This document shows positions 2,266 through 25,635 of a DNA stretch of 32,000 nucleotides, one piece after another (the stretch's first letter is position 1; each line of letters starts with the position of its first letter). The notes beneath the pieces were generated by a model that saw nothing but the letters and a program-made list of their open reading frames with translations, had not been told where the DNA came from and ran no database searches. This DNA comes from Promethearchaeum syntrophicum (GTDB lineage: Archaea; Asgardarchaeota; Lokiarchaeia; Sigyniarchaeales; Promethearchaeaceae), in contig NZ_CP042905.2 of NCBI RefSeq assembly GCF_008000775.2, forward strand, positions 1,920,001 through 1,952,000, in the 5' to 3' direction. Position numbers and translations under genes: made by a program.

Positions 2266-3552
2266 ATGAGCCAAATATTTAATAAAAAAACTAAAGCAAT
2301 CATCCTAGTCATTTTAAGCATATATTCTCCCCTTTTAATCAGTATTACAATTGAGAGTGCGAATTCTGCTAATGGCGATATTTTTTTTAATGATAATAGT
2401 TCTATCACCTATGAGCTTACTTATACTATTGAATATCAATCCTTTAGATCAGCTTCAACATTTTTTAAAGCTTGGGTCCCAAGGATAGAAAATTGGTCTA
2501 CAGATCAAACTAGTAAATTAATATCTCAAATAAATCCTGAAAATGTAATAGATCAAACTTTTGATGAATATGACATATACAATAATTCTTATGACTATTA
2601 TTACAAAGAAATGGAAGGACTAAATGGAGATCAGTCATTTTATTTGCAGTACAAATATGAGATAACCTCTTCTGGATTTAAATATGAGATTCCCGATAAT
2701 ATAACACTCGATAATTATGATACAAGCTCAAATCTTTACCAATATTATACTTCATATCAACCTTATACTGAAATAAATGATACTAATATTATGAATACCG
2801 CATTAAATGTAACAGATGGGAAATCTTCCTTAAATGAAATGATAGAAGCGATTTATTTATATGTGGTTGAAAATCTTCTCTATGAAGTGTTACCTGATGC
2901 TATTGGAGCTGCTGAAGCTCTCTCGACCAAAGTGGGGGATTGTTCAGAATATTCTTCTCTCATGGTTGCTTTATTAAGAACAGTTGGCATTCCTGCCAGA
3001 AAAGTCCTAGGAATCGCACTCACTGACGAGGATCCTGAAGAACAAATACCGAAATATGATGTAAAAGTTGGGGATGTTTGGTCTTATTCATCAGATTTAA
3101 ATAATGTTCCAGGTCATGCTTGGGTACAATATTATATCCCGGAAATTGGATGGGTTTCTGCTGATCCAACATGGGGAAATGGAGTATATAAAAATAATCC
3201 AGAATATGTTTTAGAATACCTAAATCAAATGGATTATATTCATTTAATAACTTCGGTCGGAGATTATTACGGAGTGGGGATAGAACCTCCATTAGATCTT
3301 ATTGATTCAGATGAGGAAGGAATTGCCGAAATTCCATTCGTCTATGCAATAGGGAATGCTGGATCGTCTTATTCCGAGATATCATTAACTTATGATTTTA
3401 AAGTTATTGATGTAAATTTATCAGGGGTTTCCACAATAGGAATTCCTAATATGTTTATCTTTATAGGTATCGGTGGTGGAATCTTTCTATTATTTGCCTT
3501 AATCGGAATTGCAGGTATTAGGAAAAGAAATAAAAAGGGAAATTATAGATAA
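2266..3552 (+). CDS. membrane-anchored transglutaminase-like cysteine protease domain protein
   Basis: N-terminal hydrophobic signal/anchor (AIILVILSIYSPLLISI). Transglutaminase core Cys motif GDCSEYSSLMVALLRTVGIPARKV, then GHAWVQYY...WVSADPTWG (His/Asp). C-terminal TM helix plus basic tail. Confidence 0.8.
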   Translation: MSQIFNKKTKAIILVILSIYSPLLISITIESANSANGDIFFNDNSSITYELTYTIEYQSFRSASTFFKAWVPRIENWSTDQTSKLISQINPENVIDQTFDEYDIYNNSYDYYYKEMEGLNGDQSFYLQYKYEITSSGFKYEIPDNITLDNYDTSSNLYQYYTSYQPYTEINDTNIMNTALNVTDGKSSLNEMIEAIYLYVVENLLYEVLPDAIGAAEALSTKVGDCSEYSSLMVALLRTVGIPARKVLGIALTDEDPEEQIPKYDVKVGDVWSYSSDLNNVPGHAWVQYYIPEIGWVSADPTWGNGVYKNNPEYVLEYLNQMDYIHLITSVGDYYGVGIEPPLDLIDSDEEGIAEIPFVYAIGNAGSSYSEISLTYDFKVIDVNLSGVSTIGIPNMFIFIGIGGGIFLLFALIGIAGIRKRNKKGNYR

Positions 3553-4958
3553 GTCTGAATTAGAAGTTTGATTCGTTCTTTAAATTTAGGAAAATGTCTT
3601 TCAAATTTTTTTCTTATATTTTCTTCATTATTTGTTAAAGTAAGGAGATATAGAGAATTATCATCCAAGTTAAAATGATTAAATAGAACCATGCTATTTT
3701 CCATCTGCCAAAGAGCTTGATTTTTTGTGATTAACTTAAAATCTGTGAATGTTCTGAATAAATTTTGAAAATGCGGCGCAGAAATCTCTGAAACAAGTTC
3801 AATATCTTTATCAATTGCATAATCACTTAAAATTAAAGAACTTTCATTAAGTAGAAGCATAGCTTGCGCATTTAATTTCGAAGCAAACCATTGTAATTGA
3901 GCAGCAAAAATTTCTTTATTCGGACTAAGTGCATTAATTCCTTCGGAAAATGATTTATTGAGTGAATAAGCCTCGAAAATGGAAGTGTTGAAGAAATGAA
4001 TTGTAAATCCTGTAGAGAATTCAGTGAATTTTTTCTTTAATTTTTCTAGTTTTGCTTTTAGTTCCGGAGTGTCTGAGATATCAGGATCCATTTTATGGAA
4101 ATTAATTATTATTGGTGGATATTGATTGAAGGCTCTCAATATTCCTATAAGCTTACCGAAATATTCAAAAGATTCTTCAAATCTATTATCATCGCGAATA
4201 TCAATGAAGTAAAATAATAAATTGGTATCATAAAGGTACAGATCTGCATTTTTAATATAAGATCTGCGGTATTTTTCTTGCCCTCCAAGATCCCAATCCA
4301 TTATTTGATGTCCTAATACGTTAATTTCTGATCTTTCTATCCCTTTTGTAGGTCTGATTTCAGTAAGTTCACTAAATTTTTCGTGCAATGCTCGTAAATA
4401 TGAAGTTTTTCCTGAATTTCCCAATCCCACAAAAAGAACTTTTAATTTTCTCGATAATTCAATGGGAGTATTAACTTCTGAAATATAATTCTCCACCTTT
4501 TGAGCTAAAGAATTAATTAAATCTCCAATTTCCTCATGGGAAACACCCTCATAAGCTAGCAATTTTGCTGTTTCGGCAAGCATAATTGATAGTTGTTTTG
4601 TATTTTCATAAAGGAAATATGAACGTTTATCTTCAACTAATAAGGAAATAGTAGCTGCTTTCGCTTTTCCTCTGGCAGATTCATCTTTGATTAAAAAGAA
4701 ATAGGTTAAACCAGTGAGTTCCAAATCAGGAAATGGTAAAATTCCAAAATATTTTACTGAATCGAAGAAATTTCCACCCTGGTAGATTTGTTCACCCATC
4801 AAAAGACTTATAGATTTCATCGCGATAATCATCCGATTGTCTTCAGATATAATATCTGGAACACATATCTTTGGAACTGGGCCTTCTTTTTCAAAAACAG
4901 ATAAAATTATGGTGGATGATGTTTCATTCTTGCTGGAAAAGTCTTTTGTTTCTACCAT
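3543..4958 (-). CDS. three-domain protein: FLCN/DENN-type longin-like domain + Arf/Rag-like small GTPase + C-terminal roadblock-like domain (paralog 1)
   Basis: G1 GLGNSGKT (nt 4404-4427). G3 WDLGGQEKYR. G4 HKMD (nt 4086-4097, verified on the DNA). G5 region FNTSIFEAYSLNKSFSEGINALSPN parallels RagA [22 protein letters not shown]. The C-terminal LLLNESSLILSDY... block is roadblock-like. The N-terminal ~165 aa aligns to the FLCN longin blocks (see findings). Confidence 0.75.
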   Translation of the reverse strand: MVETKDFSSKNETSSTIILSVFEKEGPVPKICVPDIISEDNRMIIAMKSISLLMGEQIYQGGNFFDSVKYFGILPFPDLELTGLTYFFLIKDESARGKAKAATISLLVEDKRSYFLYENTKQLSIMLAETAKLLAYEGVSHEEIGDLINSLAQKVENYISEVNTPIELSRKLKVLFVGLGNSGKTSYLRALHEKFSELTEIRPTKGIERSEINVLGHQIMDWDLGGQEKYRRSYIKNADLYLYDTNLLFYFIDIRDDNRFEESFEYFGKLIGILRAFNQYPPIIINFHKMDPDISDTPELKAKLEKLKKKFTEFSTGFTIHFFNTSIFEAYSLNKSFSEGINALSPNKEIFAAQLQWFASKLNAQAMLLLNESSLILSDYAIDKDIELVSEISAPHFQNLFRTFTDFKLITKNQALWQMENSMVLFNHFNLDDNSLYLLTLTNNEENIRKKFERHFPKFKERIKLLIQTYL

Positions 4959-5053: not shown

Positions 5054-5920
5054 TTGGATGATACAAAAAATACAAAAAATCTTCTCGAGAAGTTAAAAAA
5101 AGAATTAGTACTTTTATACGAATATAGTGAAAAACCTTCGAGATTTCCGATAGAATATCACTCAGGTATGGAAGTTTTAGAAGATATTAATCTCTCTAAA
5201 TCATATAATGAGAAAACAACAAAAAGAAAAGAGTACTGGTCAAAAAAAGATCATAAAATTGAAAATCAAAAAAGGGAAATGTATAAGAATTTTCAAAAGT
5301 TTCAACCCCATAATATAATCAGAAATAAAGATAAAACATACACTTATTCTCCACATGAAAGGACTTATTCATCGCTTTTCCAATGTATCAAAGATCTTAC
5401 TGAAAAATTCTCAATTGAAGATTTACTTACTGGATTCACCTGGCAAGAATTTGAACAATTTATAACCTCTGCTTTGGATCATTATGGTTATCACGCTTTT
5501 AGAACATTTAGATACACTGTAAATAAGAAACGTCATGAAGTCGATGTCATTGCCCGTGAACGTAATGATATATTGTTTATTGATGCTAAAAGGTGGAACT
5601 CTAAAACTGCAAATGAATCTGCCCTAATCAAAGCAGCTCAAGAACAATATCTAAGAGCGCAGAAGCTTGTATTAAATCCAAAAATTGCAGGCCAATTACT
5701 CCAAAAATTACATATACCAATAAATCAAAAATTTAAAAGCTGTAATATCTACTCAATTATCTTAGTTTCGAGTAATTTGAAGGAAATTATTACTGCTGAT
5801 GGGATACCTATTTTGGATTTTGCCCGATTTAATGCTTTTCTTAATAATTTTCACTCTACAAAAAGTAATTTAAAAAGTGTTAAGTTGTCCAAAGTAATAT
5901 TTCAAAAAAAACTACTATGA
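5054..5920 (+). CDS. PD-(D/E)xK superfamily nuclease-like protein (NERD/Mrr-like core)
   Basis: ...HEVDVIARERNDILFIDAKRW fits the E/D-x-D...(D/E)-x-K core of NERD/Mrr-type restriction-endonuclease folds. The ORF begins with TTG at 5054. Confidence 0.5.
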   Translation: MDDTKNTKNLLEKLKKELVLLYEYSEKPSRFPIEYHSGMEVLEDINLSKSYNEKTTKRKEYWSKKDHKIENQKREMYKNFQKFQPHNIIRNKDKTYTYSPHERTYSSLFQCIKDLTEKFSIEDLLTGFTWQEFEQFITSALDHYGYHAFRTFRYTVNKKRHEVDVIARERNDILFIDAKRWNSKTANESALIKAAQEQYLRAQKLVLNPKIAGQLLQKLHIPINQKFKSCNIYSIILVSSNLKEIITADGIPILDFARFNAFLNNFHSTKSNLKSVKLSKVIFQKKLL

Positions 5921-5927
5921 ATTATTT

Positions 5928-6953
5928 TTAAATAATTCCTTGTAGTAAAGTTATAAAAGAATCGATTTTTTCACGCAAGAGGTGTTCTCCTCTCTTAGGA
6001 GTCATAATAATTAGAAAAAGGGGTTCAGAAGCTCGTTTAATGCGGAATTGATCAGTGAAAAATCGTTTGTTTCCTCGTTCTATAATCATTGATTGTTCCC
6101 CTTGAACGTCATCTTCTAAGGAATCGTTCAGAGTAAGAAAATACGGAGTAGATTTCGTTAATATTTGCTTTGATTCTTCATTCTCGAAAAATTGTCCTAT
6201 TACCAGAGAATTAGAGTCCAAAACTAAGATTGCATTGCAATTTGAATCCAAAGATTCTGCAAATTCTTGGATTGTCTTATCTAATAACTCAGATTGCGGG
6301 AAAATTTTTAACAATAGATCTGAAAATGATGAAATAATTGACCATAAATCGTAAATTGTCGTGTTTGAATAGGAGACATTGAACTCTTCCTCAATAATAT
6401 TACGAATTTCATCTTTCAACTGTGAAATTAATCCTTCTAGATGGATTCCCTCGTTTTTCGCATAAGTTGGGTCAAATTTATGGAAAAATATGTATATTAG
6501 CGGTGAAATTTCTAATTTTCTGAATTCTTTAATTACATCCGAAAAGTATGAAATCGATTCTTCCATCCGTCCTCGATCTTGAATATCAATTACATAAATG
6601 CAGACATTAGATCTATCGAAATACTTCGTCGGCTCTTTTAAATAAGCGATACGGTATTTTTCTTGCCCCCCTAAATCCCATTCAGAAATATCATTTCCTA
6701 AAAATTCGAAAATTTTGCGTTGCGCTTGTCTAGTCGGTTTTAACATGGCAATCTGTGAAATTTCTTTTTGAAGAACCTTAATAATGCTTGTTTTTCCCGA
6801 GTTATCAAGTCCTGTGAAAAGGATCTTCTCGGAAATTTCCCGAGATTTGGTTTTTTTAATGATGAGAGTTTTTTCAAGATCATATTTTATATTCTTTTTT
6901 TTCCCATGAATATCGTGAGAATCTTGCTCAGATTGGATTTTATGTTCAAGCAT
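5928..6953 (-). CDS. Arf/Rag-like small GTPase + C-terminal roadblock-like domain (paralog 2, no longin domain)
   Basis: G1 GLDNSGKT. G3 WDLGGQEKYR. G4 HKFD (nt 6471-6482, verified). G5 NTTIYDLWSIISSFSDLLLKIFPQ. C-terminal AILVLDSNSLVIGQFF... is roadblock-like. Confidence 0.75.
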   Translation of the reverse strand: MLEHKIQSEQDSHDIHGKKKNIKYDLEKTLIIKKTKSREISEKILFTGLDNSGKTSIIKVLQKEISQIAMLKPTRQAQRKIFEFLGNDISEWDLGGQEKYRIAYLKEPTKYFDRSNVCIYVIDIQDRGRMEESISYFSDVIKEFRKLEISPLIYIFFHKFDPTYAKNEGIHLEGLISQLKDEIRNIIEEEFNVSYSNTTIYDLWSIISSFSDLLLKIFPQSELLDKTIQEFAESLDSNCNAILVLDSNSLVIGQFFENEESKQILTKSTPYFLTLNDSLEDDVQGEQSMIIERGNKRFFTDQFRIKRASEPLFLIIMTPKRGEHLLREKIDSFITLLQGII

Positions 6954-7257
6954 TGTATGTATTTTCCCCCACTCAATAAAGTAGTAGTATTATACCCCTA
7001 AAAAGTATTTGTAATTCCTTGTTTACCGATTGATAAATTTCTTAGAATATTTTTAATAATTTCGTTTTGAGAAATATTATTTAATCTGATAATTTACAGA
7101 AATTTTTTTTGATATATAAATGGAAAAAAAAGACGGCTATATAAAATAATGGGATCAATTTGAGAGGATTAATATTTGGATTGGAGTTTTTTAACCCCAC
7201 GAATTTTATGAGAGATGTTCTTCGATTATTGATAGCAATTTAAAGAGGGTATTGGGA

Positions 7258-8091
7258 TTATTTGAGAATTTTAAGTCCATTTGGTAAATCGAATGAAATT
7301 TTTTGGGAGATTTGCAGGAGGGCGGGATCTGTATACGGCAGAGAGTTTTCGAGGATTTTTTGGATGGTGGGGGTGGCTTCATGGATGAGGCGTTCAATGA
7401 GGGCGGGAGGCATGGCGGATGGGTTTGAGATATAATCGTGGGCGAGTTTTTCGACGGGAGTTTTAAAGTATTCGTAGAGGGGAGGGAGGTTTTCGTGAAT
7501 GAAAGCCTTTTGAAGTCGTTCATGATAGATTTGAACTTCTTTAATTTCGTTTGGTTTGGATTCATTTGGGTTGGATTCGAGTGTGCTGAATTTGAGCGGG
7601 TCAGATTCGAGTGTGCTGAATTTGAGTGAGTCAGATTCGAGTGTGTTGAATTTCGATGGTTCGATGGAATCTGAGTTGATGCAGTTTTTAAATAGTTTCA
7701 TACCGTGGGGAGCGAAATCAAAAAGTGTGGAGCTGTCTGTGTAATAAGGAAGTAAGTAGTGAAGAAATGGGAGTGATAAACCCGAGAGTGAGCGAATTTT
7801 TGTAGGAGTATTGAAAATAATTAATGTTTCTGATATTTTGTAATCTTCATTGAACTCATCGAAAATCTTTTTAAAATCCGTGTTTTCGGGGAAAGAGGGG
7901 AATCCTTCGAAGGAGTGGATTAGGCAGTTTTCAAATGTAAATCCAAAGAAACTGTTAGGAAAGGATGACTCTTTAACAAAGGAAAAATCTTTTATGATGT
8001 AATCCTCAACAAATAGGTGGTTATGCTGAATCTTCCCGGGTAAATCGAATGGACCGGCGATTTTAAATTGAACATAATCATCAGATCCCAT
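7258..8091 (-). CDS. hypothetical protein with internal 10-aa tandem repeats; GC-rich relative to surroundings
   Basis: I place the start at the ATG at 8089-8091 (MGSDDYVQFK...). The upstream extension of the track ORF to 8223 is low-complexity F/L-rich sequence that runs through the inverted-repeat arm. No family recognised. Confidence 0.5.
   Translation of the reverse strand: MGSDDYVQFKIAGPFDLPGKIQHNHLFVEDYIIKDFSFVKESSFPNSFFGFTFENCLIHSFEGFPSFPENTDFKKIFDEFNEDYKISETLIIFNTPTKIRSLSGLSLPFLHYLLPYYTDSSTLFDFAPHGMKLFKNCINSDSIEPSKFNTLESDSLKFSTLESDPLKFSTLESNPNESKPNEIKEVQIYHERLQKAFIHENLPPLYEYFKTPVEKLAHDYISNPSAMPPALIERLIHEATPTIQKILENSLPYTDPALLQISQKISFDLPNGLKILK
7574..7663. repeat. 3 x 30-bp in-frame tandem repeat inside CDS 7258-8091
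   Basis: gattcgagtgtgctgaatttgagcgggtca / gattcgagtgtgctgaatttgagtgagtca / gattcgagtgtgttgaatttcgatggttcg. These encode the repeated ..KF(N/S)TLES(D/N).. peptide on the minus strand. Confidence 0.9.
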
Positions 8092-8118
8092 AAATATATT
8101 ATAATAACATAAATATTT

Positions 8119-8196
8119 AATTGTTGTGGGAAGCGGAAATAAAAGCAAAAAAAGCGGAAATAGTTTGAAAAAAGCAGAAAAAAACACAAAAAAATT
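8119..8196. repeat. left arm of a long imperfect inverted repeat (pairs with 8994-9067)
   Basis: aattgttgtgggaagcggaaataaaagcaaaaaaagcggaaatagtttgaaaaaagcagaaa... compared with the reverse complement of the right arm, aattgtggggagcggaaataaaccaaaacaaaatggaaataaaagcaaaaaagcagaaa.... Identity is about 75% over ~75 nt by hand alignment, with anchored blocks agcggaaataaa and aaaaaagcagaaa in the same order. Confidence 0.7.
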
Positions 8197-8460
8197 AATA
8201 CTAAAAAATAAAATTGCTTCCAAAAAAAGATATTACCCAGCTTAAAAAGATAAATCTGTAACTCGTCTTTTTCTATCTTAAGAGGGTTCAAAATATAAGT
8301 GATTTCTAACTTTTCATCAGAAATGTTTTAAATTCATCTGCGAAGCTTCGATTTTGCCAATTTTCATGGACTTCCATTAAAAATCTCCGATATAAATAGC
8401 GAGAAAAAAAACAAATAAAAATTTTTTTTACCCCCCCCATATCACCCATACAAAAAAGAG

Positions 8461-8856
8461 AGTTGCAAATTTATCTTTGTTTTGGCTCTTTTTTTGGACC
8501 TTTTTTAAGTATAGTCTTAGATTTATCTTTGTTTCTGGACCTTTTTTAGGCAAAGTTGCAATTTTATCTTTGCTTCTGGACCTTTTACCAGGCTTTTTTT
8601 AGACTAAGTTGCAAATTTATCTTTTTTTGGGAGCATTTTGAAGCAAAGTTGCAGAATTATCTTTGCTAAAACATCATTAATGTCAAAAATATTGATTTGT
8701 CCATCTTTGTTTAAATGGTGAAATTTGAATTTTAGAGAAAAAAGAGAGTTGCAAATTTATCTTTTGGAATTAAAAATAATCGAAGTTTTTATACCCCTTT
8801 TCCGTAGTATAACCTTTTTTTTTTAGAGAAAAAAAAGAATTATAAATTTATCTTTT
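8461..8856. repeat. array of at least 7 same-orientation copies of a 19-nt motif (consensus AGTTGCAAATTTATCTTTG) in non-coding DNA
   Basis: Copies at 8461, 8513, 8554, 8607, 8647, 8747 and 8838 (spacing 52, 41, 53, 40, 100, 91 nt). The sequences between copies are also related (ctggacctttt). The shorter core TATCTTTG recurs at 8701-8709 and 8945-8953. Confidence 0.85.
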
Positions 8857-8993
8857 GGTAAAAAATCACCACGTAGATTTGAAAGTTTCATTTTTTTACT
8901 GATCCATTTCATTTGAGATTCAATATTTTTTGCATTTATTTCCGTTATCTTTGTTATGAGCCCTTGTTATTAATTCTGGGAAAGAAAAATCAC

Positions 8994-9067
8994 AATTTTT
9001 TGAATTTATTTCTGCTTTTTTGCTTTTATTTCCATTTTGTTTTGGTTTATTTCCGCTCCCCACAATT
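8994..9067. repeat. right arm of the long imperfect inverted repeat (pairs with 8119-8196)
   Basis: Contains three TTTATTTCC/TTTATTTCT units (two TTTATTTCC plus one TTTATTTCT variant), the reverse complement of GGAAATAAA. It ends ...tttatttccgctccccacaatt. Confidence 0.7.
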
Positions 9068-9132
9068 GTATGGGTAAATTTTATGGTGAAAGAATATAAA
9101 AATGGGAGAAAAAAAGAAGACGTAGGTATAAC

Positions 9133-9927
9133 CTATCGGTGAAACGAGACCATCCATGGGTATGGGCTTGGTAGTGGGTACGAAATTTGCACAAAATCCG
9201 GTTTTAGTGCAAAGAACTGGTCGTAAATCTTTCTATTGAAATTGTAGCTTTCCAATAAGCTTTCCTGCACGAACGTCCAATAGTTATTTTGAAGGCGGTC
9301 CCCCCAGTTATAATTCACAAAAGGGTACTGAGTAGCCAGATTATATGTGGATTTTTTTTTCTGATAAAACCAAGTAAAATGATAGTTCGGAACATCGTTG
9401 ATGTAATTTCCGGTCCAATGGATTCCGAATGATCCTTGAATCATTGAAGCATACATTTGATTTGGCTTATTTGTCATACCCCATACTTCCCAATTTTTCC
9501 CATCTATAGGATGTTCATTAAACAGACTCTTCACGAAGTTTTCAAGCGAGAAATCGAAAATCGGGTCGTTGTATGCGTTGTGAAGCCCAATCATGAACCA
9601 TTTAAACTCGGTCTCGGTCATAAGTGGGAAGTCTTTACCGATATGTTGACAATTCCGAAGTATTTGCATTTTTTCGGTAGGAGAATTACAAATATAAATC
9701 ATCGGCATCTTGTCAGCAAGCAGTTGCCCAGCATCCCAATCCTTTGTCTCGATATAACCTCTCTCGTATCCTCCGATCCGTTCAATCGCAACCAGATCGG
9801 TAATTTTTCCTGCTCTATTTTTTAAAGAGAGAAGAAAATCGTAGAAGATGGGTTTATTTTGCGTGCGAAGCATCTGATCAGCGATCCTTAAAGACGTTGT
9901 CATCTTATGCGTTTCACTAAATGTCAC
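9133..9927 (-). CDS. hypothetical protein (264 aa), Trp/Tyr/Asn-rich, no recognisable family; GC-elevated
   Basis: Long uninterrupted ORF with non-repetitive composition. No motif recognised. Confidence 0.5.
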   Translation of the reverse strand: MTFSETHKMTTSLRIADQMLRTQNKPIFYDFLLSLKNRAGKITDLVAIERIGGYERGYIETKDWDAGQLLADKMPMIYICNSPTEKMQILRNCQHIGKDFPLMTETEFKWFMIGLHNAYNDPIFDFSLENFVKSLFNEHPIDGKNWEVWGMTNKPNQMYASMIQGSFGIHWTGNYINDVPNYHFTWFYQKKKSTYNLATQYPFVNYNWGDRLQNNYWTFVQESLLESYNFNRKIYDQFFALKPDFVQISYPLPSPYPWMVSFHR

Positions 9928-9978
9928 TTGAACGGTTTCATCCCCGTGAACAAAGAGAAGATAATCCCAATAACCAAG

Positions 9979-11454
9979 ATGTCTTCCTCATTCAATTCCC
10001 CCATTTGGAATCAGACGTGGGATGGTTCTGCTTACGAGACTGGAACTTCGATCTGGAAGAATGAAAGTTATCTATATACAGCGGGATACACCAATAGTTT
10101 TGGAGCTGGATCTAGTGATCTCTTATTAATTAAATGGAATACTGATGGAAGCCAAATCTGGAATCGGACTTGGGGAGGCGAAGGAATAGAAGTTGGTGTA
10201 ACTGTCTGGGGAGATGAAAATTTTCTATATACAACAGGATACACCGACAGTTTTGGAGCGGGTAATTTTGATCTCTTTCTTATCAAATGGACCACTGAAG
10301 GAAATCAAATCTGGAATAGAACTTGGGGTGGTATGGACGACGATTTTGTTCGATCATTGTGGGGTGATGAAACATATTTATATACAACAGGATTGACAAA
10401 AAGTTTCAGCCCTGCAATATGTGATCTAGTCCTTATCAAATGGACCACTGAAGGAAATCAAATCTGGAATAGAACTTGGGGTGGTATGGATAGTGACATT
10501 GGTAATACTATCTGGGGGGATGAAAGTTTTCTATATACGACAGGATATACTAAAAGTTGTGGAAAAGGGGAAGGCGATCTTTTAATAGTTAAATGGGACA
10601 CCGATGGAACCCAAATCTGGAATCGGACTTGGGGTGGTACTCGTTTAGATTATGTTAATTCCGCATGGGGAAGTGGTTCGTATTTATATTTAACTGGTTA
10701 TACTGGAAGTTATAGTACTAATGATTATGACCTATTTCTAACAAAATGGGACATCGATGGAAATTTAATTTGGGAACAAATATTGAAAGGTTTTAATTAC
10801 GATAGAGGTAAATCTATTTGGAGTGATGGACTAAATTTATATGTACTTGGGACATTAAATACTTTGGGACCAAATATACGGGATTTCTTATTAATTAAAT
10901 GGGATACCGATGGTAACCAAATTTGGAACCAAACTTGGGGATACCCTGAAGATGATTTCGGCTATTCTATTTCGGGAGATGAAATATATTTATATCTGGT
11001 GGGGCATACTAAAAGTTCTTTTGTGAATGAGGGTGCTCTCTTTTTATCTAAAATTCATAAAACTGTTCTTCAAAAACCAATTTTCCAACACATTTCTCCA
11101 AATCCAGATCCCGATGGCAATATAACCTTGAATTGGAATAATGTTGCTGATGCTACATCTTACAGTCTTTATCGAAATACAAATCAAATTCCCAAAATAT
11201 CTGGTTTAGCACCGATTTCGGTATCTGCGACTACATCTTACTCAGACAATAATTTAACGAATAATACGTATTATTATGTAGTAGTTGCTAAAGATGAATA
11301 TCGAAAATCAGATATATCGAATTGTGAATTGGTGGAAGTGCAAATAGTCCCTCCGATTCCTAAAGAAGGTGGAATTTCTGGTTTTCCGTTTGGTTCTCTA
11401 TTATCTATTTGGAGTATGAGTATTATTTTCCTATTAGTAAAGAGAAGAAAATAG
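9979..11454 (+). CDS. surface protein: seven-blade SBBP-type beta-propeller + FN3/Ig-like domain + C-terminal TM anchor with basic tail
   Basis: Seven ~51-aa repeats of the form W(N/E)(R/Q)TWGG..D.G..IWGD..YLYTTGYT.SFG.G..DL.LIKW.T.GNQI. Then NITLNWNNVADATSYSLYR...YYYVVVAKDE (FN3-like). C-terminus SGFPFGSLLSIWSMSIIFLLVKRRK. I prefer the ATG at 9979 over the track start at 9907, which would overlap the divergent gene. Confidence 0.8.
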   Translation: MSSSFNSPIWNQTWDGSAYETGTSIWKNESYLYTAGYTNSFGAGSSDLLLIKWNTDGSQIWNRTWGGEGIEVGVTVWGDENFLYTTGYTDSFGAGNFDLFLIKWTTEGNQIWNRTWGGMDDDFVRSLWGDETYLYTTGLTKSFSPAICDLVLIKWTTEGNQIWNRTWGGMDSDIGNTIWGDESFLYTTGYTKSCGKGEGDLLIVKWDTDGTQIWNRTWGGTRLDYVNSAWGSGSYLYLTGYTGSYSTNDYDLFLTKWDIDGNLIWEQILKGFNYDRGKSIWSDGLNLYVLGTLNTLGPNIRDFLLIKWDTDGNQIWNQTWGYPEDDFGYSISGDEIYLYLVGHTKSSFVNEGALFLSKIHKTVLQKPIFQHISPNPDPDGNITLNWNNVADATSYSLYRNTNQIPKISGLAPISVSATTSYSDNNLTNNTYYYVVVAKDEYRKSDISNCELVEVQIVPPIPKEGGISGFPFGSLLSIWSMSIIFLLVKRRK

Positions 11455-11471
11455 TCCTTGTAGTTTTTATC

Positions 11472-11482
11472 TTTTTTTTTTT
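11472..11482 (+). terminator. oligo-T tract (T11), candidate archaeal intrinsic terminator
   Basis: T11 run 18 nt downstream of the stop at 11454. Confidence 0.35.
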
Positions 11483-11771
11483 ATCGTATCTTTCAGAAAG
11501 TCTATAGTAATCATCAAATCTTTCTAATTTCATCAGAAATATTTAATGAATTAATTGGTAAAGACATGGTTTATGATAACAAACTTTTCCATACAATCTC
11601 CCTCCCTCCAGTTATTTCAATGATACTTTATCACAAATTTTTTGATAAATCGTTATTAAATTCTTCATCTCTTATTTTTTCTGTTTAGAATATAGGGAGA
11701 GACTATAAGAACTAAAGTTAAAATTAATTTTCTTAGATTATTTTGAAATTATAATTGAGTTTGATTAAAAG

Positions 11772-12311
11772 ATGGGATTAGAATGTAGCAAATGTGGATT
11801 AAAAATGGAGACCAAACCTCTAGATTGTGGGTATAGTATGACTATGAACAATGAAACCAACCAATGGGAATGTAATATGGGAAAATGTGGAGTAATTTCG
11901 TTTGAAAATTTTCTCTGTGAAAATTGTTGTGTCAACAGTAGTATAATGGAAATTTTTAATGGATTTGAGCGCTTAGCGAAAGAAAACCTTGAATTTCGTG
12001 AAGAATTAGAAGAGTTAAAAACGACTTTTGTTCAAATTAGTTTATCAAATCCCGATTTTACGTATTGGGTGGAATTTGGGAACTGTAAATTTAAAGTTGG
12101 ATGGGGAGAAATAAGTAATGCAACAATTAAAATTAGGTGCTCTCAAGACGTTTGGAGCAAAATTCTTTCTGGGAAAGCAGTAAGTTTTATCGAATTTTTC
12201 AAAAGAAATCTTAAAATTGAGGGAGATCTTCAATATGGGGTTTTATACCTTGATTTACTTGAATTAGCTTCGGAAATTAGCCAAGATAAAGGAGTGTTAA
12301 ATAATGAATAA
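11772..12311 (+). CDS. Cys-rich zinc-ribbon N-terminus fused to SCP2 sterol-carrier/lipid-binding domain
   Basis: N-terminus CSKCG...C...CNMGKCG...CENCC. C-terminus NATIKIRCSQDVWSKILSGKAVSFIEFFKRNLKIEGDLQYGVLYLDL parallels the SCP2 block ..TI.M...DF..L..GK.....AFF.GKLKI.G.....A.KL..L. Confidence 0.7.
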   Translation: MGLECSKCGLKMETKPLDCGYSMTMNNETNQWECNMGKCGVISFENFLCENCCVNSSIMEIFNGFERLAKENLEFREELEELKTTFVQISLSNPDFTYWVEFGNCKFKVGWGEISNATIKIRCSQDVWSKILSGKAVSFIEFFKRNLKIEGDLQYGVLYLDLLELASEISQDKGVLNNE

Positions 12312-13056
12312 AACTGTCGTGTGGGGCCATAGGGGTGCGGGTTTTAGGGGAATCGAAAATACAATGCCATCATTTAAGAAAGCAGTTGATATGGGTGTTG
12401 ATGGTATTAAAACCGAAGCGCAACATTCAAAAGATGGGAAAATATTTTTGAGTTCTCAGGAAAGTTTAAAAAGAAATGGCGAATATGTAGCCTTTAAGGA
12501 TATGGATAGTAAAGAGATTAACAACTTAAGAACAGATAATAATAAAGAAGTTCTATCTCTCACTGAACTATTCAACGAATTTAAAGGTAAAAATATCCGT
12601 TATAATTTCGATATCAAAGAGCCTGAGATTGGTATAAAAATTATTGAAATTGCACGTCAGTTTAATTTAGTTGATAAAATCGAGTTAGCGAAAACAGCGA
12701 CGGATTCTTCTCCGCTGCCAAAAATCTTTGGTAAAATTAGAGAATTCGATCAGGATGTTACCTTAATAAATAGTTTATTTCTAAAGAATGCAACTAATGA
12801 GAAAAACCATCTCGAATTAGAGAGCATGCGAGAATTAAATATCCAAGGGATTAATGTGAAATATAATTATGCAAATTTTGAATTATTTAAATTGGTTAAA
12901 GACAACGGATTTAAATTCTATGTGTGGGGGGTCCTCTTTAATAGATCAATGCAAAAACTTTTAAAGATGAATTACAATGGTCAATCAGTAGATTCTATGA
13001 TGTCAAATTTTCCTGATCGATTAGTCCGATTAAGAAATAAATTTCAAACAAGCTAA
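12304..13056 (+). CDS. glycerophosphodiester phosphodiesterase (GDPD) family protein
   Basis: VVWGHRGAGFRGIENTMPSFKKAVDMGVDGIKTEAQHSKDGKIFL matches the GDPD N-terminal HRG...ENT...A...G.D.iE.D...skDg signature. It overlaps the upstream gene by 8 nt (ATGAATAA). Confidence 0.75.
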   Translation: MNKTVVWGHRGAGFRGIENTMPSFKKAVDMGVDGIKTEAQHSKDGKIFLSSQESLKRNGEYVAFKDMDSKEINNLRTDNNKEVLSLTELFNEFKGKNIRYNFDIKEPEIGIKIIEIARQFNLVDKIELAKTATDSSPLPKIFGKIREFDQDVTLINSLFLKNATNEKNHLELESMRELNIQGINVKYNYANFELFKLVKDNGFKFYVWGVLFNRSMQKLLKMNYNGQSVDSMMSNFPDRLVRLRNKFQTS

Positions 13057-13159
13057 GAATTTTTTAACTAGCAAATTTTTTTATCCTACTTTTACACCCA
13101 TAAAGATTATTGTAATTTTTTCCTTGATTTTGAGTAATTCTTCAAAATTCATTATTAAA

Positions 13160-13681
13160 TTAAGGTTTTATGAGGTTATTTAAAATATTTATTGCTTCTT
13201 CGGGTGTTTGAGCGTTAATTATTTCATCTTTTCTTTTATTATCGATTTTGCTATCTGCTAATTTTGCCGACCATCCACCAGTTGTGCTTAGTGAGACAAT
13301 TTTTTTGCCCATTTTCCAAGCAAAAGCAATTTCGCTTAATGTTCCACTCTCACCAGCGATTGTAATAATTGCATCTGCAGTGGATACTAAAATTAAATTG
13401 CGTGCTTCCCCCATCCCAGTCGGAATGATGAGATCAACATAACTATTGGCAGATTTTTTATCTAAACTAGGAAGGAACCCAATCGTAAAACCTTGCTCGG
13501 ATTTTGCCCCTTTACAGACTGCCTCCATTACACCAAATCGACCTCCACAAACTAAAGCAAAATTTTCCTTTGCAATTAATCTTCCCAATTTTTCGGCAGT
13601 TTTGTAGATTTCGTCATCTAATTCTCCAGAGCCAGAGCCTATTACTCCTATTAGACCATTAAATTCAGAAAACTGTTTCAA
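13160..13681 (-). CDS. LOG-family / TIGR00725-type Rossmann-fold protein
   Basis: IGVIGSGSG..., VCGGRFGVMEA and AGESGTLSEIAFA correspond to the GGGxxGxM and PGGxGTxxE motifs of the LOG family. Apparent TTG start overlaps the upstream stop (TTGA). Confidence 0.7.
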   Translation of the reverse strand: MKQFSEFNGLIGVIGSGSGELDDEIYKTAEKLGRLIAKENFALVCGGRFGVMEAVCKGAKSEQGFTIGFLPSLDKKSANSYVDLIIPTGMGEARNLILVSTADAIITIAGESGTLSEIAFAWKMGKKIVSLSTTGGWSAKLADSKIDNKRKDEIINAQTPEEAINILNNLIKP

Positions 13682-14664
13682 AAATATTCCTCCAAAAGAA
13701 TTTCTTCATTTTCTCCATATTTTAAGCGAATTTCATTTTTATCTTGGACTTCTCCAATTTCATAGAATTTCATATTTGCATTATACACTAAGTCAATTAA
13801 TTCATTTTTCGTTTCATTTTTACCAGATATCAAAAATCCAGAGGTTAGAAACAAGAAAATGAATTGTTCAGTAGAAAATTGTAAATTATCTGAAATTATA
13901 TGTGATTCTAAAATATTTAAATCAATTTTTGCTCCTAGTTTCGCATATTGCATCATCTGGAATAAGGTTCCCAGAATCCCCCCATTGGATATATCCTTAC
14001 ATGCTGTAATATATTTCTTGTCAATTGCTGGGGATAAAAATGATCGTTTATGGAAAAATTCCTCACTGCTTTTCATAGTGATTGTGTTCCAATAATTTTT
14101 ATTTGTAGCTGACGTTTTTCCATCAGGATCCCAAACAACTGCTAAAAAATCACCTGAATTTGATCCTCCTGCTGATAAATAATGTTCTACTGTAGTATTT
14201 CCAATGATTGTCGAAGAGATTGCTAAAGATGGAGAATCTGTAGTTGTATGACCGCGAATTAATGGAGTTTTAAAAACTTTTGTTGCGTCTAATACCCCAG
14301 AAAAGATTTTTTTACCAATATTATCATCGCCATATGCAATTGTAATGGTACTTGCTAAAGGAGTTCCACCACAAGCAAAAATATCATCAATTCCAACATA
14401 AATCGCTGAAAAACCAGCACCATATGGGGATTTTTCGATAAATGTTGGGAGAAGTGCATCGGTTGTTAAAAGGATTAAATCTTTAGATGTGGGTGTTAGC
14501 TGAATTGCTGCTGAATCTTCACCATGACTTGCATAAATTTGTGAAGAATTATAGCCATTTGCGCGAATCTTTTCTAATATTGGTATTAATTTTCTCTTTT
14601 CTTGAATATTTCTTGAATTTTCAAATTTATCAACAATTGAATGTAAGTTCATCTCTTTAATCAT
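13678..14664 (-). CDS. AIR synthase-related protein (PurM/ThiL/HypE/SelD superfamily)
   Basis: HGEDSAAIQL...LLTTDAL...GFSAIYVGIDDIFACGGTPLA is the N-terminal ATP-grasp-like PurM-family dimerisation/active-site pattern. The C-terminal domain CKDISNGGILGTL is typical. Confidence 0.7.
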   Translation of the reverse strand: MIKEMNLHSIVDKFENSRNIQEKRKLIPILEKIRANGYNSSQIYASHGEDSAAIQLTPTSKDLILLTTDALLPTFIEKSPYGAGFSAIYVGIDDIFACGGTPLASTITIAYGDDNIGKKIFSGVLDATKVFKTPLIRGHTTTDSPSLAISSTIIGNTTVEHYLSAGGSNSGDFLAVVWDPDGKTSATNKNYWNTITMKSSEEFFHKRSFLSPAIDKKYITACKDISNGGILGTLFQMMQYAKLGAKIDLNILESHIISDNLQFSTEQFIFLFLTSGFLISGKNETKNELIDLVYNANMKFYEIGEVQDKNEIRLKYGENEEILLEEYF

Positions 14665-14753
14665 TAGCTTTCATTTGTTATATGATTTTTTTAATTTTTT
14701 TTTTTTAATTTTTGCCTAAAATTTATCTATGATAACGCAAGATAATTCAATTA

Positions 14754-16280
14754 ATGAAAAAAAATTTACTCTTTCCATTTGACGATTTATTGGTTAAAGG
14801 AGCGATCTTTTCGATCTATGGAAGCATGGGTCCTGAGGCTGTTTTTTTTTATCCATTTCCTAGCGATTCAACATATTCTTTTCCAGAAATGGATAATCAT
14901 GCATCCAGTAAATTTGAACAAAGGAATTACATGCAAATTGCGGTTAAAAGTATTTCTTTGCTTTTAGTTGATTATTCTTTTGAAGATGAAAAGAATCTCC
15001 AACTGAAAGATGTTCATATATTTGGAGTTTTGCCCTATCCCGATTTAAATTGCATTGGTCTCACATATTTTACATATTTCTTCTCCCAAGAAAGAAAAAG
15101 GTTTATTCCTGTTTCTCTTTCATTACTAGTTCATGAAAATAAAAGGAGTTTTATCTATGATTCGATTAATCGGTTGAAAAAACCAACAAAGGATTTTACA
15201 CAATATTTAATCGAATTATGTATTAAAAATAAGATATATTCAGAACTTGAAGGACAAGATTATTGGGAAAATGTATTAACTAAATTTATTGATTTCTTTG
15301 GTGAAATTCAAAAAATACAGAATCAACCAATCAGCCCAATTACTAAAAAGAGAAGGATTAAGATATTATTTACAGGTTTGGAGAATACAGGAAAAACTAG
15401 TTTTATTTTAACAGTCAAACGAAAATTTAGCGGATTACCAACAATTTTACCGAGTACGGAACCAATGAACGAACCTTTAAATTTCTTAGGAACAACGATA
15501 ATGAAATGGGATATTCCGGGTAAAAAAGATTTCAGAAAAGCTATATTAGAAAATTCTGAATTATATTTATTTGAATCTGATGTTATTTACTATTTTATTG
15601 ATGTTATGGCCCCTAGAATAGATGAATCTCTTGAGTTTTTAGCGAAAGTTATGGATAAACTGCATGAATATGAGAGTAAAATTCCGATTGTCTTCATAAT
15701 TACGAAAGTTGATGAAGATGTCGCAGATTCCATTGAAATTAAAGATGCTATCGCTGAAATACGGCAATCACATCTAAAAATTATTGGAGATCATCCATAT
15801 AAATTCTTTAACACTTCCATATTTTCGATTTACTCAGTGTTAAATGCATTTTCATATGGACTTCGCAATCTATCCCCAAACCGGGAAATGATAGAACATC
15901 TTTTATGGGGATTTTTGGCTCGGAATGAATTTGTTACTGGTTTATTAGTCAATGAGAGCGGTTTAGTCCTTGCTGCACAACAAGTTAATGTCAAAGGACC
16001 AGAAGATGTCTTAAACCGTAAACAAATTTTTGAAATTGCCGCTCCACAATTTGCAATACTTGCTAAACAATTCCAAAGTTTTGATGATAAGATTAGTGAT
16101 ACAATAAAATACCAATTTTCGGAAAAAGATATAATCATTTTGAAGCGATTCATTGTTGAAGATTTTGCATTTTTCTATATATTTTATACAAAAAAACCAG
16201 AATCATTGAAAAATTTAGAAAAAAACTTTCCAGAATTTCTTGATCGGATAAGAAATCTTCTCTTGCTATATATTAAATAA
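14754..16280 (+). CDS. three-domain protein: FLCN/DENN-type longin-like domain + divergent Arf/Rag-like GTPase + roadblock-like domain (paralog 3)
   Basis: Collinear with paralog 1 over the full length: AIFSIYGSMGPEAVFFYPFP / MQIAVKSISLLLVD / FGVLPYPDLNCIGLTYF / LSLLVHENKRSFIY. G1 GLENTGKT. G3 WDIPGKKDF (nt 15510-15524, Gln replaced by Lys). G4 TKVD (15702-15713). G5 FNTSIFSIYSVLNAFSYGLRNLSPN. Roadblock-like GLLVNESGLVLAAQQ. Confidence 0.7.
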   Translation: MKKNLLFPFDDLLVKGAIFSIYGSMGPEAVFFYPFPSDSTYSFPEMDNHASSKFEQRNYMQIAVKSISLLLVDYSFEDEKNLQLKDVHIFGVLPYPDLNCIGLTYFTYFFSQERKRFIPVSLSLLVHENKRSFIYDSINRLKKPTKDFTQYLIELCIKNKIYSELEGQDYWENVLTKFIDFFGEIQKIQNQPISPITKKRRIKILFTGLENTGKTSFILTVKRKFSGLPTILPSTEPMNEPLNFLGTTIMKWDIPGKKDFRKAILENSELYLFESDVIYYFIDVMAPRIDESLEFLAKVMDKLHEYESKIPIVFIITKVDEDVADSIEIKDAIAEIRQSHLKIIGDHPYKFFNTSIFSIYSVLNAFSYGLRNLSPNREMIEHLLWGFLARNEFVTGLLVNESGLVLAAQQVNVKGPEDVLNRKQIFEIAAPQFAILAKQFQSFDDKISDTIKYQFSEKDIIILKRFIVEDFAFFYIFYTKKPESLKNLEKNFPEFLDRIRNLLLLYIK

Positions 16281-23331: not shown

Positions 23332-24591
23332 TTATTCAACTAATACTTTTTCTATTTGTTCTAAAGCCCAATTTATTTCTTCTTTAGTAATTACTAACGG
23401 AGGGGCAAATCTAATTGTAGTTTTGTGAGTGTCTTTTGCTAAAATACCATTCTCTTTAAATTGTTCAACAAATTGTCTGGCATTCCCGTCGAATTCTATT
23501 GCTATTAATAATCCCCGACCCCGAATATCAATTACTGGCAATTTTGTCTTTTTAGCTGCTATTTTTCGTAAGCCATCCTGGAAATATTTTCCTAATTCAG
23601 TTGCTTTTTCAGCTAATTTCTCACCAATCAGAATATCTAATGCTTTTGATGCGATAGCTGAAGCTAGTGAATTTCCTCCAAATGTCGAACCATGTGTACC
23701 TGGTTTGATAACTTCAGGACCGACAACATCCTTTGTAGTAACTATTGCGGATACGGGATAGATTCCACCACCAAGGGCTTTTCCTAAACAAAACATGTCG
23801 GGTTTTACATCTTCATGATCAACGGCAAAAAGTTTTCCAGCTCGGCATAATCCGGATTGAATTTCGTCAGCGATCATTAATATATTATATTTGGTACATA
23901 TTTCTCGAACTTTTTTATAATATCCTTCTTTGGGAATTTTTACACCTGCTTCGCCTTGGATAGGTTCAAAAAGAAATGCAGCAACATTTTCTGGACCGAG
24001 TTTTAAGATATGATCTTCTAATTCTTGGGCATTTCCATATTCTATAATCTCAAATCCTGGAGTATAAGGACCGAAATTACCATAATAATTTCCGCATTGG
24101 GTATCTGTGCTAAACCCAACGATTGTAATAGTTCTTCCATGGAAATTATCTGCACATACAATAATTTTAGCTTGATCCTTTTTAATACCCTTCTTAATAT
24201 ATCCCCAAGCTCGTGCGACTTTTAAGGCTGTTTCGACAGCCTCTGCTCCAGTATTCATTGGAAGTGCCATTATTCCTGAATTTTTTGAATCGTTAATGTG
24301 AGGTCCAACTATACCACATAGTTTTTTTAAATAAGGTCCCATTTGATCATTGCAAAAAGCGCGTGAAGTTACTGCGACTTTTTTCAATTGTTCTTCTGCC
24401 ACTTTTACTATTTCAGGATGACAATGCCCCATATTTTGGCTGGAATAAGCGGATAAGCAATCTAAATATTTTTTTCCTTCCGGGTCCCAGACCCAACAGC
24501 GTTCTGCTCGTGCAATTACGACTTCTAAGGGATGATAATTGTGAGCCCCATATTCATGGTCCATTTCTACGAATTCTTTTGAAGTTGTCAA
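23332..24591 (-). CDS. rocD: ornithine aminotransferase (class III PLP aminotransferase)
   Basis: EYGAHNYHPLEVVIARAERCWVWDPEGKKYLDCLSAYSSQNMGHCHPEIV is near-diagnostic for OAT. IADEIQSGLCRAGK...CLGKALGGG contains the PLP lysine block. Confidence 0.88.
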   Translation of the reverse strand: MTTSKEFVEMDHEYGAHNYHPLEVVIARAERCWVWDPEGKKYLDCLSAYSSQNMGHCHPEIVKVAEEQLKKVAVTSRAFCNDQMGPYLKKLCGIVGPHINDSKNSGIMALPMNTGAEAVETALKVARAWGYIKKGIKKDQAKIIVCADNFHGRTITIVGFSTDTQCGNYYGNFGPYTPGFEIIEYGNAQELEDHILKLGPENVAAFLFEPIQGEAGVKIPKEGYYKKVREICTKYNILMIADEIQSGLCRAGKLFAVDHEDVKPDMFCLGKALGGGIYPVSAIVTTKDVVGPEVIKPGTHGSTFGGNSLASAIASKALDILIGEKLAEKATELGKYFQDGLRKIAAKKTKLPVIDIRGRGLLIAIEFDGNARQFVEQFKENGILAKDTHKTTIRFAPPLVITKEEINWALEQIEKVLVE

Positions 24592-24649
24592 TTTTTACAC
24601 CTTTAATTATATTTTTTTTTTTGTAATTGTATTTTTAAAAAACTGGAAG

Positions 24650-25600: not shown

Positions 25601-25635
25601 AATTTAGCCTCTTTAGAATTTTTAATTAATTTGAA

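Follow-up and report, generated by a model that had tools for sequence, protein, structure and literature searches.

A longin domain of the GTPase-activating class, with a candidate arginine finger, fused to a Rag-family GTPase in the archaeon Promethearchaeum syntrophicum

Introduction

In eukaryotic nutrient signalling, Rag GTPases are turned off by longin-domain complexes that act as GTPase-activating proteins (GAPs), namely FLCN-FNIP and GATOR1. Does an archaeal Rag-type GTPase carry such a longin within its own chain? The question is raised by a 32,000-nucleotide stretch of the Promethearchaeum syntrophicum MK-D1 chromosome (NCBI RefSeq assembly GCF_008000775.2, contig NZ_CP042905.2, positions 1,920,001 to 1,952,000 of the forward strand; hereafter the window, with a G+C content of ~30%). 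One of its genes, here called LGR-470, encodes a 471-amino-acid (aa) protein composed of a longin domain, a Rag-type GTPase domain (G domain) and a roadblock domain. A sequence-only reading of the window had proposed that the start of this protein aligns in three blocks with the longin domain of human folliculin (FLCN), that the arginine of an ESARG motif takes the place of the FLCN arginine finger, and that the three domains form a self-contained module in a single chain.

Fusions of longin domains with "Arf-like" GTPases have been reported in Lokiarchaea since 2016 (summarised in PMC4917890), and Liu et al. (2020) described Asgard Rag GTPases with a fused longin as well as FLCN-like and NPRL2-like longins in Asgards. 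AlphaFold2 (AF2) was applied to all MK-D1 small GTPases by Tran et al. (2024; PMC10933270), who list the protein studied here as "WP_147663355.1-LGR" (longin-GTPase-roadblock, LGR), give dimer models for the LGR class and consider that GAPs are probably needed; according to their supplement, the MK-D1 longin-GTPases are without a switch I arginine and "may require GAPs". A study in Traffic (2025; PMC12290439) defined a Gly-Pro (GP) motif, reported this motif together with an arginine finger in Asgard FLCN/SMCR8-type longins, and raised Rag/Gtr or ArfR GTPases as possible partners.

Results

A longin domain, a Rag-type G domain and a roadblock domain lie in one chain

The LGR-470 protein is 100% identical to WP_147663355.1 (QEE16479.1; UniProt A0A5B9DB51), which is encoded on the 4.32-Mb chromosome of MK-D1 and named "ADP-ribosylation factor-like protein" in the database. 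The gene and the parts of its product lie in the window as follows:

3543..4958, minus strand: whole LGR-470 gene, 471-aa longin-Rag GTPase-roadblock protein (list of open reading frames, ORFs; 100% match to WP_147663355.1)
4473..4916, minus strand: longin domain, residues 15-162 (AF2 model, Foldseek, hhalign against the FLCN profile)
4878..4883, minus strand: GP motif G26-P27 in the beta1-beta2 turn (conserved in homologues; paired by hhalign with FLCN G15-P16)
4668..4673, minus strand: R96-G97 in the beta4-beta5 loop, candidate arginine finger (conserved; paired with FLCN R164-G165)
3930..4445, minus strand: Rag/Gtr-type G domain, residues 172-343 (Pfam Gtr1_RagA, PDB sequence matches, motifs)
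4404-4427, minus strand: P-loop GLGNSGKT, from residue 178 (motif)
4278-4292, minus strand: switch II DLGGQ, from residue 223 (motif)
4086-4097, minus strand: G4 motif HKMD, from residue 288 (motif)
3555..3917, minus strand: C-terminal roadblock domain, residues 348-468 (AF2 secondary structure, Foldseek superposition)

The Pfam family Gtr1_RagA (PF04670) matches residues 173-377 with 84.3 bits (cutoff 22, E=1e-23), and the PDB sequence matches of the G domain are LokiRagO, Gtr1 and RagA. The Rag/Gtr motif set is present, with a P-loop GxxxxGK[ST], DxxGQ, and HKxD instead of NKxD, the former being typical of Rag/Gtr GTPases. A full-length AF2 model built with 42 homologues, with a predicted local distance difference test score (pLDDT) of 76.6, separates into three modules at residues 16-162, 172-343 and 348-468, the last being a roadblock-like module of alpha/beta type. 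Over ~300 columns, Foldseek superposed the G and roadblock domains of this model on 8yl2, RagA and Gtr1, with template modelling (TM) scores relative to the target of 0.82, 0.77-0.81 and 0.72-0.79, respectively. Longin, GTPase and roadblock lie in one chain, as the sequence-only reading had stated, and the protein is a Rag-family small GTPase with a G domain and a C-terminal roadblock domain.

The N-terminal domain has the fold of GAP-complex longins

Modelled alone, residues 1-165 (pLDDT 82; predicted TM score, pTM, 0.78) show the longin topology beta-beta-alpha-beta-beta-beta-alpha-alpha, with strands at 16-23 and 26-33, a helix at 39-53, strands at 70-76, 81-91 and 99-109, and helices at 110-135 and 141-162. 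The top PDB match of this domain in Foldseek was 8yqg, a Lokiarchaeal longin (E=2e-7, TM ~0.7), followed by the Lst4 longin of K. lactis (E=5e-4), GATOR1 chains (E=5e-4) and 8dhb_J (E=1e-3). Chains of the FLCN-FNIP2 complex (FLCN 6nzd_H, with a TMq of 0.52, and FLCN 6ulg_L) and of C9orf72-SMCR8 were also matched; the FLCN subunit was confirmed for 6nzd_H and 6ulg_L, and the remaining chains are named by complex. Among the top 50 matches, the eukaryotic longin neighbours came only from the FLCN-FNIP/Lst4, GATOR1 and C9orf72-SMCR8 complexes, and no SNARE, TRAPP, SRX or adaptin longin was present. Taken together, these results support the assignment of the N-terminal ~150 aa to the longins of the FLCN/NPRL2/SMCR8 (GAP) class.

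Arg96 is in register with the arginine finger of folliculin

FLCN R164 reportedly is the catalytic finger for RagC/D, as seen in the 2019 cryo-EM studies of FLCN-FNIP2-Rag-Ragulator (PDB 6NZD, 6ULG). The human FLCN sequence used for the comparison matched 6ULG_L over 579 residues, with an identical N-terminal longin and one difference near residue 476. The FLCN strings given by the sequence-only reading are correct, and the arginine in its SLARG string is R164. On the archaeal side, the interval 4554..4916 (minus strand) that it had singled out translates to residues 15-135 of the 471-aa ORF and contains all three strings that it quoted, and the arginine of ESARG is indeed codon 96, read as AGA at 4671-4673 on the minus strand.

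The sole Pfam match in the N-terminal region is Folliculin (PF11704; E=0.0025, residues 84-134 on profile positions 49-97). Its score of 18.1 bits stays under the gathering cutoff of 23.3 bits. The same match recurs in 20 of 21 close homologues and in 16 of 55 diverse ones (best E=1.5e-5), homologue P0073 carries it as a precomputed annotation, and Folliculin is the only family out of the 24,736 in Pfam that recurs for the longin homologues.

We then compared families instead of single sequences. The archaeal side was represented by 21 close homologues (alignment A2) and by 55 diverse domains (alignment A5), drawn from the 158 matches that HMMER returned among 1.84 billion representative proteins. 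The FLCN profile was made from 29 N-termini of animals and fungi; R164-G165 is the same in all of them, and G15-P16 in nearly all. The hhalign result was weak when human FLCN alone was the target (24-27 columns, probability <3%). Against the 29-sequence FLCN alignment, A5 paired over the beta4-RG-beta5 stretch (P=5.6e-4), and after removal of the FLCN insertion (residues 25-112) the pairing covered 78 columns (P=5.2e-5, probability 67%, identity ~23%); a meaningful alignment with FLCN needed both the family alignment and the removal of the insertion. This pairing recovers the three-block alignment first drawn by eye, placing GP on G15-P16, IAMKSISL on ACVRSLSC in helix alpha1, and ARG on A163-R164-G165, and R96 was paired with R164 in the single-sequence, family and insertion-trimmed runs alike. 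The real score was 29.7, compared with 10.6±2.1 (maximum 18.5) for 300 column-shuffled versions of A5, that is, about nine standard deviations (SD) above them, a distance to which the shared fold may contribute, as column shuffling erases the periodicity of secondary structure. We conclude that Arg96 occupies the position of FLCN Arg164 and that this longin is one of the GAP class.

We also considered the protein as an FLCN orthologue and rejected this, because PF11704 stays below its gathering score and the DENN region (cDENN/dDENN) is replaced by the GTPase: in LGR-470 a Rag G domain and then a roadblock domain come after the longin, where FLCN and SMCR8 have DENN.

The fusion and its Arg-Gly loop are conserved

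At E<1e-20, more than 525 database proteins match LGR-470 from end to end. Nearly all of the best 120 are 460-490 aa long and share its architecture, and they are 41-89% identical to it (exact match aside); they come from metagenome-assembled genomes (MAGs) of Promethearchaeota/Lokiarchaeia, a few of which bear the label Hod-, Hermod-, Odin- or Thorarchaeota. Conservation of the fusion and of the arginine, which the sequence-only reading had put forward for checking, is borne out in both respects, since the fusion is found in more than 100 genomes and every one of the 79 LGR-470 orthologues taken from genomes has GP and ARG, nearly every one also DxxGQ. Among the homologues G26, P27, R96 and G97 vary little or not at all, R96-G97 being invariant in 42-52 full-length ones. 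In a wider set of 107 longin domains from 50%-identity cluster representatives, the four positions are still among the best-conserved columns (G 103/107, P 96/107, R 86/107 and the next G 81/107). The arginine is retained in several architectures:

Longin-Rag-roadblock, ~470-510 aa: Arg kept in 7/12
Longin-Ras-like GTPase (e.g. Helarchaeota), ~345 aa: Arg kept in 29/32
X-longin, ~285 aa: RG in 14/14
Free-standing longin, variable length: Arg kept in 19/24

The longin is also fused to a second class of GTPase with its arginine mostly kept, which fits a domain serving the adjacent G domain. In these Longin-Ras/Rab-like fusions (P0169, P0185 and ~30 other cluster representatives), the longin is N-terminal and the GTPase has a single domain. 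In the ~285-aa family, the longin lies at residues 115-230, behind the N-terminal domain X.

Two further Rag paralogues share a conserved neighbourhood with LGR-470

The window holds two more Rag-family genes near LGR-470, together with two other neighbours that recur beside it:

2266..3552, plus strand: transglutaminase-like protein, 428 aa, with a C-terminal membrane segment, convergent neighbour (Pfam Transglut_core)
5054..5920, plus strand: Mrr_cat/NERD-like protein, 288 aa, divergent neighbour (Pfam)
5928..6953, minus strand: Rag-320 paralogue, a longin-less Rag-roadblock protein of 341 aa (residues 2-341 identical to PDB 8YL2)
14754..16280, plus strand: LGR-500 paralogue, a longin-Rag-roadblock protein of 508 aa (Pfam Gtr1_RagA; longin profile E=4e-29)

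We analyzed this arrangement in 80 loci (L004-L083) obtained by a scan of species-representative genomes with locally called ORFs; three further loci (L001-L003) agree with them. Read in the orientation of LGR-470, the order in nearly all loci is LGR-500 (-), Rag-320 (+), Mrr/NERD-like (-), LGR-470 (+) and transglutaminase-like (-). The Mrr/NERD-like gene is upstream of LGR-470 in 69 of the 71 loci with enough flank, and also in L001-L003; Rag-320 is upstream in 51 of the 54 with enough flank; LGR-500 is present in at least 30 of 46 loci, the MK-D1 copy sitting just beyond 10 kb; and the transglutaminase-like gene is downstream in 64 of 80. Since the genes are on alternating strands, they do not form one operon and only a conserved neighbourhood can be claimed; an operon of LGR-470 and LokiRagO was rejected, as the opposite-strand Mrr/NERD gene lies between them. 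The conservation of a neighbourhood with three Rag paralogues across Lokiarchaeia is, to our knowledge, described here for the first time.

The two paralogues differ in their motifs. The PDB record of Rag-320 (8YL2) is entitled "homotetrameric RagA-like GTPase LokiRagO with GTP"; the crystal retained GTP, which suggests slow intrinsic hydrolysis in the family. Of 57 Rag-320 orthologues, 15 have another residue at the position of the switch II Gln (FLGK or FLGR). The N-terminal domain of the 508-aa LGR-500 protein, labelled as an unknown "X" by Tran et al. (2024; PMC10933270), is of the same longin family as that of LGR-470. In MK-D1 it keeps GP and has QERKRF at the position of the ESARGK of LGR-470, and all 30 LGR-500 orthologues keep GP, while RG is found in 0/30. 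The MK-D1 copy may hydrolyse GTP poorly, because DIPGK and TKVD replace DxxGQ and HKxD in its G domain. Outside MK-D1, the LGR-500 orthologues mostly have GGQ, with an unusual SKGD as G4 motif.

Several further features of the locus were recorded. The LGR-470 and transglutaminase genes of MK-D1 overlap by 10 nt. A convergent gene for a small Arf/Ras-like GTPase (206-218 aa) lies between these two in a few genomes, including those of Lokiarchaeum ossiferum and "Harpocratesius" (8354-9010 in L001 and 8450-9070 in L002/L003; also in L007, L008, L010, L011 and L013); it is absent in MK-D1. Rag-320 and LGR-500 are ~7.8 kb apart in MK-D1 (window 6953..14754) and 2-3 kb apart in most genomes. The additional MK-D1 genes in this interval include those for SCP2, GDPD, SLOG (LDcluster4) and AIR-synthase-related proteins, and three ORFs of 321, 264 and 515 aa are without a Pfam match. 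The 321-aa ORF (7258..8223, minus strand) has three tandem short peptide units (…SLKFSTLESD / PLKFSTLESN…) and overlaps a 119-aa ORF (7206..7565) in another frame. At 23332..26592 (minus strand), genes for a class-III aminotransferase, an amino-acid kinase and an ornithine/aspartate carbamoyltransferase form three consecutive genes of the arginine/ornithine pathway, which are probably unrelated to the Rag cluster. Finally, locus L025 (DATKTW010000091.1) holds a complete Lokiarchaeal Rag cluster and was deposited as "Candidatus Nanopelagicaceae bacterium"; this contig is most likely mis-binned.

Discussion

The reading that best fits our results, to which we give about even chances, is that LGR-470 would act as a Rag-type switch containing its own longin GAP, with Arg96 as the finger. 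Besides the domain class, register, conservation and fusion described above, the lack of a switch I arginine in these GTPases (Tran et al., 2024; PMC10933270) and the GTP kept in the LokiRagO crystal speak for it. The protein would dimerise via its roadblock domain, and probably via the longin too, and Arg96 would reach as an arginine finger into the pocket where a Rag-type G domain binds its nucleotide. The receiving G domain would be one with a catalytic Gln (DLGGQ) and no intrinsic arginine, and could be that of the same chain, of the partner chain, or of either syntenic Rag paralogue; the outcome would be a Rag switch carrying a built-in off-timer. From the domains, motifs, conservation, fusion and synteny observed, we infer a GAP activity and its possible substrates, and action in trans, within the dimer or on a paralogue, is at least as likely as action in cis because the paralogue cluster is conserved.

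A number of observations weigh against this reading. The Folliculin score in Pfam is sub-threshold, the hhalign probabilities against the FLCN family are just 30-67%, the distance from the shuffled controls may in part reflect the fold, and a search of PDB sequences with the A2 or A5 profile returned no FLCN, NPRL2 or SMCR8 chain, only 8yqg. This closest solved relative has GP but no Arg at the finger position. In the full-length model (pTM 0.60), the junction at residues 163-168 has a pLDDT below 50, and the linker from the last longin helix to strand beta1 of the G domain is ~8-10 residues long and of low model confidence. A structural role is conceivable for an Arg-Gly in a tight hairpin, and most longin domains are modules of guanine nucleotide exchange factors (GEFs) or platforms, not GAPs. 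A joint loss of the longin arginine and of the catalytic Gln of the G domain is not general, as cases without the Arg and with the Gln exist; it is particular to the MK-D1 508-aa copy. The "self-contained" module proposed by the sequence-only reading is weakened by the conserved cluster, whose two further Rag paralogues suggest a system of several partners.

The main rival of a built-in GAP is a platform or GEF-like longin, that is, a non-catalytic domain for dimerisation, autoinhibition, effector or membrane docking or GEF-like sensing of the nucleotide state, as in MglB, Ragulator, TRAPP or Mon1-Ccz1, with the Arg-Gly as a structural hairpin or an interface. We regard it as possible but doubtful. 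Most modules of longin and roadblock type are platforms or GEFs (introduction of Tran et al., 2024; PMC10933270), the 8yqg relative is a longin dimer without the Arg, and the whole conserved LGR-500 lineage is likewise without it. However, the affinity of the LGR-470 longin in structure and in sequence goes to GAP-class longins and not to platform longins, and its best-conserved positions, GP and RG, are exactly the two motifs that separate GAP longins from the others (PMC12290439).

It is rather improbable, in our view, that convergence or the common longin fold accounts for the likeness to folliculin, in which case the domain would belong to a longin family specific to Asgards and without any special tie to FLCN. 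The low identity over the 78 columns, the failure of the single-sequence comparison and the absence of FLCN from the profile-to-sequence search would be expected in such a case, as would the PF11704 score. By contrast, the profile-profile score stands far above the shuffled controls with GP and RG both in register, Folliculin alone recurs among Pfam families, GAP-complex longins lead the Foldseek ranking, and Asgard FLCN/SMCR8-type longins with the same motifs have been reported independently (PMC12290439). That the domain is a PAS/GAF-like small-molecule sensor gating the GTPase is very improbable: longins belong to a wider PAS/GAF-like fold group (PMC4917890) and weak LOV/PAS matches appear in Foldseek (probability 0.3-0.9, TM 0.25-0.4), but these rank under all longin matches with poor TM and root-mean-square deviation, and no ligand-binding motif was seen.

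Among the closest known systems is FLCN-FNIP2 (Lst7-Lst4 in yeast), the GAP for RagC/D (Gtr2), with which LGR-470 shares the longin fold as well as a GP turn and an Arg-Gly loop at matching positions, and whose client, like the presumed client of the LGR-470 longin, is a Rag-family GTPase with a roadblock domain. LGR-470 differs in that its longin is covalently fused to the GTPase and without DENN, whereas the FLCN longin is on a separate polypeptide; the zinc-binding Cys/His insertion of FLCN between beta2 and alpha1 is absent, and there is no Ragulator, TOR or lysosome context. The NPRL2-NPRL3 pair of GATOR1 and C9orf72-SMCR8 are of the same structural class by Foldseek. Both pair a finger-bearing with a finger-less longin, an arrangement mirrored at the gene level by the Arg-containing 470-aa and Arg-less 500-aa lineages; unlike these complexes, LGR-470 is without DEPDC5- or WDR41-type partners and has its G domain in the same chain. 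By analogy, Arg-containing and Arg-less longin paralogues beside a longin-less Rag recall the pairs FLCN/FNIP, NPRL2/NPRL3 and SMCR8/C9orf72.

Among archaeal proteins, the Asgard FLCN/SMCR8-type longins (Traffic, 2025; PMC12290439) have the same motifs and proposed ancestry as the LGR-470 longin, which is set apart by its physical fusion to a Rag-like GTPase, and in relatives to Ras-like ones; the main text of that study has no occurrence of "fused", and we found no mention of GTPase fusions in it. The MK-D1 LGR Rag-like GTPases of Tran et al. (2024; PMC10933270) include LGR-470 itself, and in the available text of that study its longin is not classed as FLCN- or GAP-type and Arg96 and GP are not pointed out. 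The closest solved structure, 8YQG (profile E=6.5e-20), is the longin of a Lokiarchaeal Roadblock-Longin protein, a dimer with GP; it differs from LGR-470 in having ENLKEPEKT in place of the Arg-Gly and a roadblock-longin architecture with no GTPase, and it represents a natural finger-less comparator. The bacterial MglA-MglB system is similar in that a prokaryotic Ras-like GTPase is under the control of a GAP dimer of the roadblock/longin superfamily, but there the two are separate polypeptides and the arginine is intrinsic to MglA, none being supplied by the roadblock protein MglB.

A more far-reaching extension, which we consider unlikely, is that the three syntenic Rag paralogues are an archaeal proto-Rag/FLCN module, in which an LGR-470:LGR-500 heterodimer held by roadblock and longin domains would regulate itself and/or LokiRagO, the split arrangement of eukaryotes having arisen by fission. 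If this were true, one LGR-470:LGR-500 pair would reproduce both RagA:RagC and FLCN:FNIP, and the separate longin GAP complexes and Rag heterodimers of eukaryotes would have arisen by fission of fusion proteins.

The longin-GTPase-roadblock layout is not new; its reading as a built-in GTPase-activating module is. In the literature searched, whose scope did not extend to the primary paper on 8YL2/8ZLA ("LokiRagO/M"), we found neither an assignment of the LGR longin to the GAP class nor an account of the three-paralogue neighbourhood; we also found there no paper linking the LGR layout with the Asgard FLCN/SMCR8-type longins, and PMC12962969 does not deal with Rag, longin or FLCN. LGR-470 varies the arrangement of a known system and will not surprise specialists, and the value of the finding is tempered by the prior publication of the architecture and of both component ideas.

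Overall, the finding joins two published observations and adds a conserved gene cluster to them. The covalent union of a GAP-class longin with a Rag-family GTPase here, and with Ras-like ones in relatives, is a "Rosetta-stone" argument for partnership between the two, and suggests the partner asked about for the Asgard longins (PMC12290439). With a cultured organism, expressible proteins and a solved crystal structure of the longin-less Rag, this system may offer a test bed for a longin GAP that would predate the eukaryotes.

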